From Promethearchaeati archaeon SRVP18_Atabeyarchaeia-1 (GTDB taxonomy: Archaea; Asgardarchaeota; Atabeyarchaeia; Atabeyarchaeales; Atabeyarchaeaceae): 64,000 bases of DNA. The DNA is taken from assembly GCA_037308085.1 (NCBI GenBank), contig CP147779.1, forward strand, positions 1,728,001-1,792,000, given 5' to 3'. The notes below the pieces were generated by a model that saw nothing but the letters and a program-made list of their open reading frames with translations, was not told where the DNA came from and did no database searches. Shown in pieces: positions 28,448 through 33,265 of this stretch. The translations under genes and the position numbers were made by a program. Positions within the stretch are counted from its first letter, which is position 1. Each line of letters starts with the position of its first letter.

Positions 28448-28610
28448 GGACAGAGTCGCGCCCCATGTGATTCTACACCGCTGCTGAAAAAGGTGAGTGG
28501 CCCACTTAAACCGCGGATCTGAGTACACTGGCTTGAAACTAATACAAAAGCATTATTGGGAGATCCCGCAATCCTCAAGGCAATCTAGCGAAGTTCACAA
28601 TATGCATTCC

Positions 28611-28646
28611 GAAGAAGCCCCCGCCTTTCAGGGTGGGAGAAATTGC
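28611..28646 (+). repeat. IS200/IS605-end-like palindromic repeat copy
   Basis: GAAGCCCCCGCCTTTCAGGGTGGGAG hairpin. Confidence 0.6.
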
Positions 28647-29249
28647 AGCGACATGCAAGTTGTGAGCCCTAAATACGGCACCCTCTAACATCCTTTGGCC
28701 ATACTGTTAGAACGTGCCGCCAGTTGAGGCTGATCCCAGCTACACGCCTCAGACGTGCCCCATTCTCCTACTTTCCTCAGCTCAATAGCACTCATCTGTC
28801 CACGTCCGCACCAAAGGCATCTCTGTTTTTGTCTCTCTCCTCAAAGTCTAACATTATTTGACCTTTTTTCTTCATGCTTCGCTTGACTTCTAGGTCTTTG
28901 ATCTCTGCCTTAACTGCGTCGTACCTTTTCGGGGCAACATTGATTGATTCGACGTAGATTGCCTAGTCAGCGGGGCAATCAAAGTAACATACCAAAAGAA
29001 CAGAGTGGAGCGTCCCTGCCAGACCTGGGATCACGATCATGTGCCTAGGCGCATGCAAACTAGTTTCTTGGATTCCTTGTTTGTTCTGCGATTACATGAT
29101 CAACATGTTGAGCATTCCAGAAGTTCTAGCCCACCCGTGACTATGCGCCCACATTTCGATTTCCGGGAGGCCTCTTGCCAATCTCGGAAAATCCGGTATC
29201 GGTGATAGGGTCTAACAATCTTAAATACAGAGAACGGGAATTCTTCTTT

Positions 29250-29936
29250 ATGAGACTGGCCACATTGTTCAGCGGAGGTAAGGATTCGACATATTCGACA
29301 TACAGGGCAATGGACTCAGGCAATGAGATAGTTCTCTTGGTCACTATGGTACCTAAGAGACCAGATTCTTGGATGTTCCATCATCCATGTATTGAGTTGA
29401 CTAGACTGCAGGCAGAGTCCATTGGAATTGAACAACTCACGAGGGAAACGGGGGGTGAGAAGGAAAAGGAGTTGTCGGATTTGAGAAGTGCGCTGAATGA
29501 GATTAGGAATGAGATTGATGGGATTGTAACTGGTGCCGTTGCCAGTAATTATCAGAAATCTAGAATCGACAAGATCTGCGGTGAACTGGGGTTGGTTCAT
29601 GTTGCCCCCTTATGGGGGAGAGACGAAGAAGGAATCTTGCTTGACGAGGTCAATGTTGGTCTTGAGATTATCTTCACTGGTGTATATGCAGAAGGTCTTG
29701 ATGAGAAATGGCTCGGTAGGAAAATAGATAAGGTGTGCATTGAGGATCTGAAAAAGCTGAACCGAAAGTATGGGATTCACTTAACAGGAGAGGGAGGATG
29801 CTACGAGACTCTGGTATTGGATTGCCCCCTTTTCAGAAAGAGAATTCAGATCCAAGACAGCCATAAGATCTGGGAAAGGTCAAGTGGGTATTTGCAGATT
29901 GACGAAGCCAGACTAGTAGCTAAGAGCGTGTCTTAA
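29250..29936 (+). CDS. dph6: Diphthine--ammonia ligase family ATP pyrophosphatase
   Basis: FSGGKDS, SWMFH, SNYQ and GEGG.YETLV.D.PLF motifs. Confidence 0.9.
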   Translation: MRLATLFSGGKDSTYSTYRAMDSGNEIVLLVTMVPKRPDSWMFHHPCIELTRLQAESIGIEQLTRETGGEKEKELSDLRSALNEIRNEIDGIVTGAVASNYQKSRIDKICGELGLVHVAPLWGRDEEGILLDEVNVGLEIIFTGVYAEGLDEKWLGRKIDKVCIEDLKKLNRKYGIHLTGEGGCYETLVLDCPLFRKRIQIQDSHKIWERSSGYLQIDEARLVAKSVS

Positions 29937-31068
29937 TTCTGTAAACTCCAACCTCGGTTGATTCAATCAAACCACGTTTTTTGTACCTTGAAAGGTACGC
30001 ACTGGGCGACTTGTATCCCATCTCTCTCATTTTGCTAGCAAAGTCTTTTGTGAGGAAGATACCACCTCTCTGTAAATGCTTTATCACTTGATTGAAGCTA
30101 GACAGTTTCCTCCTTCTGCCGCGGACCTTCAACATTTTTGTCACTCTTGAATTCTTGTTCCTCGGCAGAAATCCTATTTCATGGGCAAACCGTGGCAAAT
30201 CCTCTGAGTATATGTTGAGCGACCATTTTGCGCTGATTTTCCCCCTTCTGAGAGACGTCTTGTTTCTTCTAATCGACTCTGGGGCCACGGTGCTCTGTAT
30301 TTTGAAATGATGAAGTAGAACTAAGTGTTCACCAAGTAAGGTTGGTGGAGGATTTGCGAGAACAAGATTTGCTAGTTTCGGATGTGTGCGCTTGAGTTGA
30401 CCGAATGTCACTTTCTGTCCTACGGATATGTCGAGTTCACGTGTAAAGTCAGAGACATCGGTGGTTCTAACTAGGTGTATATATCTCTTTGATTTTGAAT
30501 TACTGGGGCTGCCCTCTGCTTCGAAAGCAATTCTGAGATACTCCCTACAGAATTCCTTGTTATGAAGAATGAATCTTGGTATACGTTCGGGGATCGGCAA
30601 GAGATATCTTATGGCGCTGGGGAAACGGGTCCTGGGTACATTTCTCGATTTTGTCTTATGCATGAAATGCAAAAGCTGCTTTCCCAGCAGATTTCTTAAT
30701 GAAGAAGAGAGTATTCCATGGAACACTTCTTCGGGCACATGCAATCTGAATTCGGTTCGGAATGAACCCTCTGACAGCATTACAGCATAGATTCTGACAT
30801 AGTCTAGATTGTCAAGATTTAGTGGCAGTCTTATCCTCAACTTGCGAGTCTTCTGCCTGACCCCGCGTACTGGGATGTAGCTGATTGAGTCCTCAGTTTT
30901 CCGTCTGCCGCCAAGACCTAAGAGCTTCTTGACTGATATGGAACCGGTTTTCGATTGCAGACCTTCTGGCAGTCTATTGAAGCCGACAAGAATACTCGGT
31001 CCAAGATCCCAGTAGTGTGTTCGCCTGACGTTAGGCGCAGTATTGGCGTATTCTTCCCAGCTTTTCAT
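29920..31068 (-). CDS. Free-standing double-motif LAGLIDADG endonuclease-like protein with C-terminal winged helix
   Basis: IYAVMLSEGS and YLRIAFEAEGS helices, LPRFAHEIGF, very basic; no flanking intein or intron context. Confidence 0.7.
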   Translation of the reverse strand: MKSWEEYANTAPNVRRTHYWDLGPSILVGFNRLPEGLQSKTGSISVKKLLGLGGRRKTEDSISYIPVRGVRQKTRKLRIRLPLNLDNLDYVRIYAVMLSEGSFRTEFRLHVPEEVFHGILSSSLRNLLGKQLLHFMHKTKSRNVPRTRFPSAIRYLLPIPERIPRFILHNKEFCREYLRIAFEAEGSPSNSKSKRYIHLVRTTDVSDFTRELDISVGQKVTFGQLKRTHPKLANLVLANPPPTLLGEHLVLLHHFKIQSTVAPESIRRNKTSLRRGKISAKWSLNIYSEDLPRFAHEIGFLPRNKNSRVTKMLKVRGRRRKLSSFNQVIKHLQRGGIFLTKDFASKMREMGYKSPSAYLSRYKKRGLIESTEVGVYRIKTRS

Positions 31069-31309
31069 GTTATATCGTCTTTTTTGGACGCATATAAGGT
31101 AAACAACTGGTAAAAGCGAGCCATTCAAAATTGAAGGAGAGCGGCGATATTCAATACACTGAAAGACCGCAAAACCATTGGTGTGGTTGTGCTAGAGATC
31201 TTTGTCAATCACGCAGTGCAGCGATGAATGCCTAAGACGATTATATATGGCGAACGGAGTTGGGTTAGCCTGGATGAATTCAATGTGGCAGCAACCGAGA
31301 GTCTTATGG

Positions 31310-31465
31310 TCCGCGGGGGAATGTGAATTGGTTGTCTGTGATGGGCCTACTTTTAGGCGCAGAATAGAATTCCTGAAGAGCGAGAAGGTCTGGGACAGCA
31401 AGACGGGGAGCTGGTACTTGAAGGTGGATGAGGCTGAACTCGTTCAGAATAGGGGCACCAAGTAA
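31310..31465 (+). pseudogene. dph6: Orphan 3' end of a second dph6 allele
   Basis: GECELVVCDGPTFRRRIEFLKSEKVWDSKTGSWYLKVDEAELV versus parent GCYETLVLDCPLFRKRIQIQDSHKIWERSSGYLQIDEARLV. Confidence 0.85.
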
Positions 31466-31466
31466 C

Positions 31467-31958
31467 TCAGAGAAATGACTTGAGAGCTCCATAGGACATT
31501 GTCTCGTTGATTTCTTCCACAAATCTGATCCTCTCTGCGTCGCCAGATGCAAGGGACCCCTTCAATATTATGGGCTTGAAGTCTAGGTCTTCGGCGCCCC
31601 TGTATGTGGATAAGACGCAGTACTCTGCGCAGTACCCAGTCAGGATCAGAGTGTCAACGCCGAGTTTCCTTAGTTTTTCTGCGAGTCCTGTCTTCGTGAA
31701 AGCGTTGCCATAGGTCTTTGCGATACGCGTGTCCTGAGGATCAAGCTTAACACTGTCTGGAACATCAAAGCCCGGTTTGCCTGGTACGAGTCCTTCCTCT
31801 TCGCTCTTGTGTTGGATGACGAAGATTGGGAGATTCTTCTTTCTAAAAAGGTCAATCGCTGCATTTATGTACTCAATGGCTGAGTTTAGGGAGTCTGAGG
31901 AAGCTCGGCTCTTGAAGAACTCATTCTGAATGTCTATCACGAGTAGGGCTGGTTTCAT
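31467..31958 (-). CDS. Isochorismatase-family cysteine hydrolase
   Basis: ALLVIDIQNEF, K...NAF and G..AEYCVLST motifs. Confidence 0.9.
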   Translation of the reverse strand: MKPALLVIDIQNEFFKSRASSDSLNSAIEYINAAIDLFRKKNLPIFVIQHKSEEEGLVPGKPGFDVPDSVKLDPQDTRIAKTYGNAFTKTGLAEKLRKLGVDTLILTGYCAEYCVLSTYRGAEDLDFKPIILKGSLASGDAERIRFVEEINETMSYGALKSFL

Positions 31959-31996
31959 TTCTTGCTCTCCTTCTTCGCTAGGTGTAGGATGGTGCA

Positions 31997-33265
31997 CTAC
32001 TCATAGACCTTTTCGTCCTCCTTATCTGACTCAGCGGCGTCGTGTTCCACGTCCCTGACTTTCTCTTTTAGCTCGCTAAGCTCCCTGTAGTATTCGTGCT
32101 GAATTATCAGGTTCATTATCTGGCTTGTGCCTGTCCAGATCATTGCAAGCCTCGAATCTCTGAGAAGTCTTTCGATCGGGTAGACGTTTGTGTATCCGAT
32201 TCCCCCGAGTATCTGCATCGAGTTGTTTAGGATCTCCCATGCGGCTTCCGTTGCAAACTTCTTGGCCTCGGAGGCCATGCGGCGCTGGAGTCCCGAGTCT
32301 TTCCGCTCATCGACTGTGCGAGCTGCGGCGTAAACCAAGCCTCTTGCGGCATCAAGTAGGGTGATCGAGTCGGCAACCATGAAGCTGACTGCCTCGAACT
32401 TGTTTATTGGCTTTCCAAATGCCTTTCTTTTCTCGCTGTACCTTGCAGCTATTTCGATGGCTGCCCGGGCAGTGCCGAGCGCTCCTGCTGCGCTGGTCAT
32501 CCTCTCAGGAATCATCATTTGCCAGAAGACGTCACTGGCGGAGTTCTCCTTCCAGAGCAGGTTCTCCGCTGGAACCTTGACGTCGTCGAAAACGAGTCTC
32601 CCCGCTCCTCCTCCTCGAGTGCCCATAAGTCCATAGACGTAATCGGCCCTCACTCGGGGGCCTCTGTCTACTAGGAAGGCGCTCAGTGATGCGTGACCGG
32701 GTGCATCGCTCCGCGTTTTTGCATAGGCGAGGAAATAGTCGGCACCATCGGCTCCAACCACGAACCGTTTCTGTCCCTTCAGAATATAGTCTTCGCCATC
32801 CTTCTTCGCCACAGTTGTCGTTCCGAAGAAATCTGAGCCTCCTCGGGGCTCGGTTAGCGCCTCAGCGCAACATAGCTTCCCTTCGAGTGTGGGCTTGAGA
32901 TATTTCGCTTTCTGCTCATTAGTTCCAAATACATTTAGTGCCTCTCCAACGATTATTGGAAGTGAGAATAAGCATCCAAGCGACATTCCAAGGACCCCTA
33001 TTTCCTCCAACGCGAGCACGTCGTCTACCCACTTCAGACCTCTTCCACCGTATTTGGGAGGGAATCGGAGTCCAAGCAAGTTTCTCTTAGCTAGGTTCTG
33101 CACGTACTCCTTAGGGTATCTGACCTTATCGGCGTCCATGTCGATAAGTAAGCTTCTTGGGACCTCATTCCTGACAAAATCTCTGACTTCATCCCTGAGC
33201 CTTCTCTGCTCAGGCGTGAGAAGCGCATCGAACATTATATCGTTATCCTCCGCGAAATCGCTCAC
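31997..33265 (-). CDS. Acyl-CoA dehydrogenase
   Basis: [14 protein letters not shown] and ILGGIGY..ERLLRD motifs. Confidence 0.93.

Follow-up and report, generated by a model that had tools for sequence, protein, structure and literature searches.

The one intact dph6 gene of the 2.8-Mb archaeal genome studied here is a xenologue, closest to alleles of the Aenigmatarchaeota type, and it is linked to a free-standing LAGLIDADG gene, with decayed pieces of a resident dph6 on either side of the pair. It is likely that this arrangement represents a dph6-specific homing-endonuclease cassette that occupies neither an intron nor an intein and brings its own replacement dph6. The fold of the protein and its conserved acidic residues, the invariable linkage of the two genes, the xenology, a common junction and a pair of empty and filled alleles are all shown. 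Positions are those of the window, by which we mean the whole 64,000-nucleotide stretch that was analysed (Table 1). The nearest database relatives of the window's lineage are labelled Njordarchaeota.

Table 1. Features of the dph6 locus, in positions of the window.
Feature	Positions	Strand	Remarks
Decayed 5'/middle fragment of resident native-type dph6	28912-29034	+	Contains a stop codon; left of foreign block
Left leader of foreign cassette	29120-29249	+	DNA homology block with L056 from 29120, with L032 from 29209
Intact dph6	29250-29936	+	228 aa, diphthine-ammonia ligase, xenologous
Probable LAGLIDADG homing endonuclease gene, free-standing, double-motif	29920-31068	-	382 aa; N-terminal domain, LAGLIDADG core, C-terminal winged helix (modelled)
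Right-hand cassette spacer	31069-31314	-	77% identity to L056 spacer, up to junction
Decayed 3' tail of resident dph6	31315-31465	+	From inside EGGE motif to native stop
Native right flank: isochorismatase-family gene and acyl-CoA dehydrogenase	31467-33265	-	Synteny anchor

Intact dph6 and the remains of a resident gene

A preliminary description, made from the sequence alone, had placed the intact dph6 tail to tail with a basic 382-aa protein, had judged this block more AT-rich than its flanks, and had recognized the readable tail of a different dph6 allele beyond it. Each of these claims held. The two genes overlap by 17 nt at the dph6 3' end, and the protein has a pI of 10.9; a GC scan identified the cassette as the lowest-GC 2.2-kb stretch in the window (45.0% against a window mean of 49.6%, with a SD of 1.2-1.4% for stretches of the same size); and the tail shares 46% identity over 48 aa with the intact gene (E 2e-10). 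The block had been drawn too narrowly, its span being about 29120-31314 (~2.2 kb, comprising leader, dph6, nuclease gene and spacer), and the dph6 remnant to its left had been missed.

The intact gene is full length (Pfam Diphthami_syn_2, E 4e-76, profile positions 1-218 of 219), and no other intact dph6 copy is present in the genome. Dph2 is also encoded there. The intact dph6 shares 43-45% identity with the native genes of G001, from the same genus, and G002, from the same family, which are themselves 68% identical; the corresponding values are 89% for locus L056, 79% for locus L032 and 58-64% for Aenigmatarchaeota proteins. In a dph6 tree the intact gene falls with 98% support among nuclease-linked alleles, including one allele from an Aenigmatarchaeota metagenome-assembled genome (MAG). 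An AU test (p = 0.008) supports the placing of the linked dph6 with such alleles, away from the native genes of its own family, the group having been chosen after the tree had been seen. The trees of the nuclease and of the linked dph6 agree for the most part.

The 3' tail corresponds to dph6 profile positions 182-225 and forms the terminal part of an ORF at 31202-31465 (+). It begins within the EGGE motif (…AGECELVVCDGP…), and its native stop lies 1 nt from the isochorismatase gene (Pfam Isochorismatase, E 1e-29). The tail is 50-51% identical at the amino acid level to the native tails of G001 and G002, with a KTGS insertion common to all, and 69% identical to G001 at the DNA level over 116 nt. 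It stands where synteny places the native dph6 in G002, and also in G001, where one extra gene lies between; the right flank is 77-80% (amino acid) and 75-78% (DNA) identical to those of G001, G002 and L056. A further extension of this remnant upstream of the EGGE site, through a GVGLAWMNSMW stretch, was considered and finds no support from the dph6 profile. The remnant on the left, DVDCLVSGAIKVTYQKNRVE, matches dph6 profile positions 87-115 at 28948-29034 (E 8e-8 for the region alone). A tblastn search with the native G001 dph6 aligns residues 73-109 to it at 41% identity (E 7e-6), and it is 46% identical to the G002 protein over 26 aa.

Both genes of the cassette are preceded by TATA-like boxes, which we infer to be leaderless promoters. 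The first, TTAAATA (29221-29227, read from the sequence), ends ~22 nt before the dph6 ATG; the second, TTATATGC (minus strand, 31090-31097), ends ~21 nt upstream of the endonuclease ATG, and a TATATA-type box stands at an equal distance from the endonuclease start in L030, L033 and L042. The 245-nt spacer may be an older remnant from a previous host, for which the alignment with L030 and L033 is merely suggestive and the dph6 profile finds no match.

The LAGLIDADG protein and its linkage to dph6

An AF2 model of the 382-aa protein (pLDDT 89.9, pTM 0.83) and the structural matches of that model establish a double-motif LAGLIDADG fold with confidence. Every top match, in Foldseek as in VIA, is a LAGLIDADG protein (Z 13-16, 160-194 residues); in VIA-align, PI-PfuI leads (Z 16.1, rmsd 2.6, 184 residues), followed by the TliVMA intein endonuclease (Z 14.6), WhiA (Z 13.9) and I-DmoI (Z 13.6). 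The claim that two LAGLIDADG-type helices retain acidic residues (SEGS, AEGS) is upheld, both by the model, in which helices at residues 88-99 and 171-185 end in E100-G101 (…AVMLSEGS) and E185-G186 (…IAFEAEGS), and by conservation in 35 sequences, which show G101, E183 and E185 without exception and E100 and G186 almost so (at least 90% conserved). The C-terminal winged helix that had also been proposed is on weaker ground: it is modelled at residues 323-378, a part that the structural alignments barely cover, and its AbiEi_4 match (residues 330-378, E 8.5e-4) reaches 19.8 bits against a cut-off of 25. The curated LAGLIDADG profile threshold was likewise missed (PF14528 LAGLIDADG_3, E 0.015, 16 bits against a cut-off of 22.5), and we regard the family as lying outside current Pfam coverage. 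The protein is probably a monomeric two-motif LAGLIDADG endonuclease, although cleavage is inferred and no cleavage assay has been performed.

Adjacency to dph6 proved to be repeated without exception. In all 26 distinct homologue loci the nuclease gene is convergent with dph6 and overlaps its 3' end, by 9-41 nt in the 24 loci that were measured and by 15-17 nt in the other two. These loci have differing flanks and carry the labels Aenigmatarchaeota, Nano/Woesearchaeota and other archaeal MAGs, though such taxon labels may be unreliable. The family is rare, with 41 clusters among 1.8 billion representatives, and among 41 relatives searched a strong match was found in the window's genome only. 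Viral contigs were scanned for a nuclease homologue or possible vector and none was found. Broken copies exist: the nuclease gene of L056 has one in-frame TAA, and that of L055 is truncated. Full-length conserved copies also persist across 35-68% identity; dN/dS was left out because synonymous sites are saturated at these divergences. A purely selfish element would need continual transfer for such copies to persist, and a role beneficial to the host remains a possible alternative. Weak paralogue matches in the same genome (L002-L004, 32-33% identity) were considered as repeats of a dph6-like cassette, which was not supported; one of them, L003, is a separate 534-aa two-motif LAGLIDADG ORF that adjoins tmk, with no Pfam match and no tmk remnant.

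The insertion site in empty and filled alleles

Ten loci retain, past the nuclease start, a remnant of the dph6 tail that begins at profile positions 176-193 and mostly at 180-184. One further contig, for which no DNA sequence was available, has a 43-aa ORF matching Diphthami_syn_2_C in the same place. At the DNA level most remnants begin at (G)GN GGA GAA TAY GAA, directly after the TATA-like box, and wherever the start can be aligned it falls within the EGGE codons.

The clearest view of the event comes from L056, which is filled, and G002, which is empty, having a native dph6 and no nuclease gene. Their flanks are 95% identical over 4.7 kb on the left and 3.6 kb on the right, and in L056 the cassette replaces everything from the start codon to GAA GG/, to the right of which stands G002's own tail (91% of 152 nt). 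The right junction defined by this pair is GAA GG/A GGC GAA TAC, the slash marking the breakpoint. Presence and absence at one defined site are also seen in the window's genus, where the window is filled and G001 is empty. The cassettes of the window and L056 share 84.8% identity over 2307 nt, their flanks 75-76.5% and their dph6 remnants only 61%. From this excess of cassette over flank identity, the divergent remnants, and the native allele kept by the cassette-free relative in each genus (G001 or G002), we conclude that the two cassettes represent independent invasions. Left junctions vary: that of L056 lies at the start codon, that of the window in mid-gene, and those elsewhere directly against the neighbouring genes. 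The left side of the event is not accounted for by one simple mechanism.

The intact dph6 of the window has EGGCYE at the site, as opposed to the EGGE(Y/F)E of remnants and of empty alleles without the nuclease gene. Among the 120 closest dph6 proteins, 8 have EGGCYE, and linkage to the nuclease is confirmed for 7 of them. The commonest motif in linked alleles is EGGEAE, whose alanine fails as a marker of linkage, since L059 and L060 possess it with neither nuclease gene nor remnant; L042 has an intact nuclease, yet a canonical EGGEYE. Given EGGEAE in nuclease-free loci and EGGEYE in L042, changes of amino acid at the site are no clean marker of immunity.

Probable intron-less homing, its rivals and its precedents

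The preliminary description had left two alternatives, intron-less homing and a domesticated WhiA-like regulator carried as cargo. The former is supported by the fold, the linkage, the foreign dph6 and the empty/filled junction, with activity and allele resistance remaining inferences, and the latter is disfavoured. Under the homing model, the target would be the conserved DNA that encodes EGGE(Y/F)E(T/S) of dph6 (GGN GAR GGN GGN GAR TAY GAR ACN in empty alleles), and the cut would be expected around GAA GG/N GGN GAA, within GAAGGNGGNGAA. Both are inferred from the anatomy of the loci, there being no cleavage assay behind either activity or target. The basic element would consist of a replacement dph6 3' end, the overlapping nuclease gene on the opposite strand, and a short stretch with the nuclease TATA box. 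Its insertion would leave dph6 functional without an intron or intein, and the displaced resident tail would decay downstream. Break repair is envisaged to copy the element together with a variable length of donor dph6; if the divergence between donor and recipient is too great, the donor dph6 would enter in full, with its own promoter. In the window, the resident native-type dph6 would have been broken at the EGGE site, the ~2.2-kb block now standing between a mid-gene fragment and the tail, and the linked EGGCYE allele is taken, again by inference, to resist cutting.

One rival explanation, which we consider very unlikely, is a domesticated LAGLIDADG and winged-helix DNA-binding protein similar to WhiA, which would regulate dph6 or a neighbour and travel as cargo without cutting. 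In its favour are the rank of WhiA among the top structural matches, the modelled winged helix with its weak AbiEi_4 match, and the retention over deep divergence of full-length copies that always overlap the dph6 3' end. WhiA has lost the catalytic acidic residues. Against a regulator of this kind stand the conservation of both motif-terminal acidic residues (E100 and E185), the extreme rarity and patchy distribution of the family (one of the 41 relatives), its polymorphism between genomes that are 95% identical, its tie to insertion scars at one fixed site, and the broken copies in L056 and L055. Also very unlikely is ordinary xenologous replacement by homologous or illegitimate recombination, with the nuclease gene merely carried along, inactive or irrelevant, and with remnants that are generic scars. 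The differing left junctions would fit it, but it predicts neither one right junction inside EGGE in ten loci of different lineages nor the presence of a rare protein family next to a single gene, dph6, in 26/26 loci. Integration by an integrase typically duplicates the 3' end of the target gene. An element with a recombinase that integrates at the dph6 3' end and restores it, as at tRNA genes or guaA, with the LAGLIDADG gene as cargo, has a Phage_integrase gene ~1.1 kb beyond dph6 in L037 to recommend it, but is most improbable given that the insert in L056 and the window comprises dph6 and the nuclease gene only, that gene calls inspected at other loci show no integrase within ~4 kb of the nuclease (17 loci were outside this screen), that no viral-contig relatives were found, and that the empty/filled difference is a clean 2.2 kb.

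For the homing cassette, the closest precedent is provided by the mobile ORF elements (mORFs) of fungal mitochondria, known from atp6 of Allomyces macrogynus, atp6, atp9, cox2 and nad3 of Glomus sp., atp9 of Rhizopus and cox2 of Mortierella (PMC3630166). In these, an endonuclease ORF, mostly LAGLIDADG, enters the 3' part of a conserved protein gene; a foreign replacement C-terminus keeps the gene intact, and the native C-terminus remains downstream, unexpressed and diverging (PMC3630166). The dph6 cassette likewise has an in-frame replacement C-terminus with the native one left downstream. It differs in residing in an archaeal chromosome rather than an organelle, and in its target. Whereas the mORF endonuclease is co-oriented and often in phase with the host gene, the dph6 nuclease is on the opposite strand, overlaps the 3' end without fusion and has its own TATA-like box; its protein has additional N-terminal and (modelled) winged-helix domains, and in the window's lineage the whole gene, not the tail alone, was replaced. 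Intron-less homing by free-standing endonucleases is also known from T-even phages, for example SegB and other Seg and Mob enzymes (PMC2330249, PMC2988022). It co-converts flanking markers through break repair. There, as here, a free-standing nuclease gene adjoins the gene targeted in nuclease-less genomes, but the phage enzymes belong to the GIY-YIG or HNH type and not to LAGLIDADG, operate between the genomes of co-infecting phages and leave no duplicated tail of the target gene. I-DmoI (from an rRNA intron) and the intein-borne PI-PfuI and TliVMA have the same monomeric two-motif fold, in which each motif helix terminates in an acidic residue, and the PI-PfuI match extends into the N-terminal part of the model (model residues 2-324). 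Sequence identity to these enzymes is only 11-20%, and dph6 is kept whole by replacement of its tail at the DNA level, not by splicing. WhiA, a bacterial LAGLIDADG-derived transcription factor, similarly has a LAGLIDADG scaffold followed by a C-terminal helix-turn-helix-type domain, of which the counterpart in the 382-aa protein is the modelled winged helix; the 382-aa protein differs from WhiA in retaining the catalytic acidic residues, and its gene context, its spread among taxa and its signs of mobility are different too. No relevant paper turned up in literature searches that combined dph6 or diphthamide with homing endonucleases, and those for free-standing archaeal LAGLIDADG genes returned general reviews only.

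Homing endonucleases are generally thought to survive in conserved genes only within self-splicing introns or inteins (PMC3943268). The dph6 cassette would represent a third solution in archaeal chromosomes, described earlier for fungal mitochondria, in which the element brings a replacement for the part of the gene that it disrupts. It would also represent a documented whole-gene xenologous replacement of a translation-related gene by a selfish element, the selfish drive being inferred and cleavage untested. A bolder reading, which we consider less likely than not, is that of a gene-drive-like cassette moving across archaeal phyla, in which an Aenigmatarchaeota (DPANN)-type dph6 entered an Asgard-affiliated lineage. 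According to this reading, the nuclease would cut a universally conserved EGGE-coding site, the cassette would still be spreading between genera, the decaying tail of the target gene would be the right homology arm, and EGGE to EGGC substitutions would confer immunity. If true, cellular chromosomes would harbour a natural allele-replacement drive that complements itself, and the cassette might also be a trace of DNA flow from symbiont to host. More generally, the uncharacterized LAGLIDADG subfamily described here has a predicted target of ~20 bp, for which natural empty and filled alleles are available; the cassette may help to trace the flow of DNA between DPANN-type and other archaea, and archaeal dph6 phylogenies may be distorted by it.

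Gene content of the block and fold of the encoded protein

Comparative evidence makes it likely that the dph6 block of the window is a homing cassette that targets dph6 itself; cleavage, the exact cut site and immunity are inferred. The preliminary description, made from the sequence alone, had placed an intact dph6 tail to tail over the gene of a basic 382-aa protein, with the tail of a clearly different dph6 allele beyond it, and ORF, Pfam, identity and pI analyses upheld this observation in every detail. The intact ORF contains a full-length Diphthami_syn_2 domain (Pfam, E 4e-76) and overlaps the convergent gene by 17 nt. The displaced tail, a decayed remnant of the resident gene, matches profile positions 179-217 only (Pfam, E 4.6e-5) and shares 46% identity with the intact gene. 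The higher AT content first judged by eye was likewise confirmed by a GC scan: the block has 45.0% GC, the window as a whole 49.6%, and no window stretch of equal size is lower. No other dph6 was found when the window's genome was searched; Dph2 is encoded there.

Features of the dph6 block (window coordinates)
Feature	Position	Strand	Description
Second dph6 remnant	28912-29034		mid-gene, native-type; upstream of intact dph6
Intact dph6	29250-29936	+	228 aa; ORF listing and translation
382-aa ORF (nuclease gene)	29920-31068	-	ORF listing and translation
87-aa ORF	31202-31465	+	final ~50 codons resemble the dph6 C-terminus

The 382-aa protein (pI 10.9) gives only sub-threshold Pfam matches (LAGLIDADG_3, E 0.015; AbiEi_4, E 8.5e-4) and belongs to a small, tight family: sequence searches returned 32 members among 5.8 billion proteins and 41 clusters in a set of 1.8 billion representatives, nearly all ~380 aa long. 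Alignment of 35 members reveals two LAGLIDADG-type motifs, with consensus LYALMxSEGS and YLRIAFEAEGS; no member deviates at G101, E183 or E185, and conservation reaches at least 90% at E100 and G186. From this alignment AlphaFold2 produced a confident model (pLDDT 89.9, pTM 0.83) in which helices 88-99 and 171-185 terminate exactly at the acidic-Gly pairs. Its top Foldseek and VIA-align matches are LAGLIDADG proteins only: PI-PfuI (Z 16.1; rmsd 2.6 over 184 residues, 20% identity), the TliVMA intein endonuclease (Z 14.6), WhiA (Z 13.9), I-DmoI (Z 13.6) and I-Tsp061I (Z 12.5). The LAGLIDADG fold suspected at the outset is thus supported, and the protein is predicted from the model to be a LAGLIDADG enzyme, cleavage not having been shown. 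The alternative raised in the preliminary description, a domesticated WhiA-like regulator, is unlikely, since the family keeps both acidic residues, which argues for a nuclease over a WhiA-like binder.

Replacement of the resident dph6 in two lineages

The right flank of the window (an isochorismatase-family gene and an acyl-CoA dehydrogenase gene) is syntenic with the same-genus relative G001 and the same-family relative G002, where the family's own (native) dph6 ends one gene away from, and directly before, the isochorismatase gene, respectively. The window allele is only 43-45% identical to these native alleles, which share 68% identity with each other amid neighbouring genes at 77-87%. In a maximum-likelihood tree it joins the nuclease-linked alleles of loci L032, L030 and an Aenigmatarchaeota MAG (98% support), and the native alleles group with the phylum's other nuclease-free alleles. 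A constrained topology uniting the window and L032 alleles with the native ones was rejected (AU p = 0.008), although this group was picked only after the tree had been inspected. The nearest nuclease-free relatives of the window allele are Aenigmatarchaeota proteins (58-64% identity), and the 3' remnant has the KTGS insertion seen in native-type alleles. Against the cassette of L056, a filled site, the window shows a single homology block (29120-31420) at 84.8% identity, with flanks at 75-76.5%. Given the xenologous dph6, the two native-type remnants and this cassette homology, we conclude that a foreign block of ~2.2 kb lies between the pieces of a broken resident dph6. A third copy of the cassette, with 75.7% DNA identity from 29209, occurs in L032, a relative whose left neighbour differs. 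From the V4R gene start to the mid-gene remnant, ~380 nt (28529-28911) lack a convincing ORF; searched alone, this region gives a faint dph6 profile match (positions 32-58, E 0.08), which hints at a more strongly decayed 5' end of the resident gene.

L056 carries the database dph6 closest to that of the window (P0070, 89% identical), and its DNA is 95% identical to that of G002 over 4.7 kb leftward and 3.6 kb rightward. G002 has a native dph6 that is not accompanied by a nuclease gene. L056 has lost the native gene from the start codon up to the junction GAA GG|A GGC GAA TAC and holds instead a leader, a foreign dph6, a nuclease gene (interrupted by a single in-frame TAA) and a 245-nt spacer; the sequence right of the junction is the tail of the G002 gene (identical at 91% of 152 nt and 88% of amino acids). 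Of the 14 tail mismatches, 7 lie in the initial 26 nt. One of these, GTC where G002 has GCC, agrees with the G001/window-type tail, which is suggestive only but might reflect a short conversion tract from a donor's remnant. The window and L056 remnants are only 61% identical. Because G001 and G002 are still empty, we conclude that the window and L056 lineages were invaded separately by related cassettes. The TAA of the L056 nuclease gene (L056:5671-6987, minus strand), at the window's Tyr89, interrupts an otherwise full-length, 80% identical gene and could be early decay or a sequencing error. In G002 the V4R gene is also separated from the region upstream of dph6 by ~3.1 kb (L057:8796-11884; G002:C1:1682795-1685883) with no counterpart in the window or in L056, which is otherwise 95% identical; either G002 may have gained this DNA or the others may have lost it.

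Linkage and a common junction across archaeal loci

We looked at eight database homologues, 17 loci from GTDB genomes (one a duplicate), and L056 and L061, both reached later via their dph6. The nuclease gene and a dph6-domain gene converge in all 26 distinct loci, so the expectation of repeated adjacency to dph6 held. The 3' ends overlap by 9-41 nt in 24 measured loci and by 15-17 nt in the remaining two; neighbouring genes vary, and taxon labels include Aenigmatarchaeota, Nanoarchaeota/Woesearchaeota, Thermoplasmatales and Methanosarcinales MAGs. Among 41 relatives searched, a strong nuclease match occurred in the window's genome only. Four DPANN loci carry the dph6 domain in fusion with an asparagine-synthase-like protein, the nuclease gene still lying at the 3' end. 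Such fusions include the ORFs of 684-715 aa in L035, L044, L046 and L053 (Nanoarchaeota/Woesearchaeota), where dph6 forms the C-terminal part behind a GATase/asparagine-synthase-like protein and the nuclease gene overlaps the 3' end.

When six-frame translations of the loci were scanned with a dph6 profile, ten of them proved to have a tail remnant just past the nuclease start codon. All ten remnants begin within profile positions 176-193 (mostly 180-184), where the EGGE motif lies; on one further contig a 43-aa ORF matches Diphthami_syn_2_C at the same position. Most remnants begin with (G)GN GGA GAA TAY GAA. In the most compact loci (L030, L033, L042 and L047) the remnant lies 37-64 nt from the nuclease ATG, and in the first three it starts directly after a TATATA-type box ~26 nt upstream of that ATG, a putative nuclease promoter for a leaderless mRNA. 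From this compact anatomy we infer an ancestral element of ~1.3 kb, comprising a replacement dph6 tail (~46 codons), the opposite-strand nuclease gene and its presumed TATA box. The remnants L040:2845-2976 and L052:1589-1720 stand 0.6-1 kb from the nuclease start, rather than 37-64 nt, extra DNA having apparently been inserted between element end and remnant; in L040 a 624-aa open frame runs into the nuclease gene.

Proposed homing mechanism and its precedents

The observations agree with homing, in which an empty allele would be cut at the EGGE-coding site and repaired from a filled allele, the displaced dph6 tail providing homology on the right and the donor dph6 on the left. If donor and recipient genes diverge too much, the left end would resolve elsewhere (at the start codon in L056, mid-gene in the window), and the whole donor gene would enter with its own TATA-like box (29221-29227). 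Nuclease and linked-dph6 trees are largely congruent, which fits co-transfer or long co-conversion. The proposal in the preliminary description that the nuclease cuts the resident dph6 and brings a resistant allele thus has comparative support, both activities still being inferences. Among the 120 nearest dph6 proteins, EGGCYE is found in eight, seven of them confirmed as nuclease-linked, and remnants and empty alleles have EGGE(Y/F)E; immunity of the linked allele is plausible on this basis, without cleavage data. However, EGGEAE is present in linked alleles and also in the nuclease-free L059 and L060, and L042 retains EGGEYE beside an intact nuclease gene; resistance may therefore rest on nucleotides not identified here. 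Degenerate nuclease copies, one with a stop codon (L056) and one truncated (L055), are compatible with the usual life cycle of homing genes.

Full-text literature searches found no paper joining dph6 or diphthamide with a homing endonuclease, and only general treatments of free-standing LAGLIDADG genes. The closest precedent is offered by fungal mitochondrial mobile ORFs, which insert into atp6, atp9, cox2 or nad3 (PMC3630166, citing the Allomyces atp6 case), bringing a foreign C-terminus and leaving the native one downstream (PMC3630166). The dph6 family shares this arrangement but resides in archaeal chromosomes, and it differs in that its nuclease gene lies on the opposite strand and has its own promoter-like box, and in that the whole dph6 was replaced in the window's lineage. 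Phage intron-less homing follows an analogous logic but involves other nuclease families.

A second free-standing two-motif LAGLIDADG ORF of 534 aa is present in the window's genome (L003:715-2319, plus strand; G000:C1:891494-893098), with motifs LLAARFSDGS and LRQAFGDEGS and a long, charged N-terminal extension. It has no Pfam match and is convergent with a thymidylate kinase gene, no tmk remnant having been found nearby; weaker relatives occur in L002 and L004 and also in G001 and G002.
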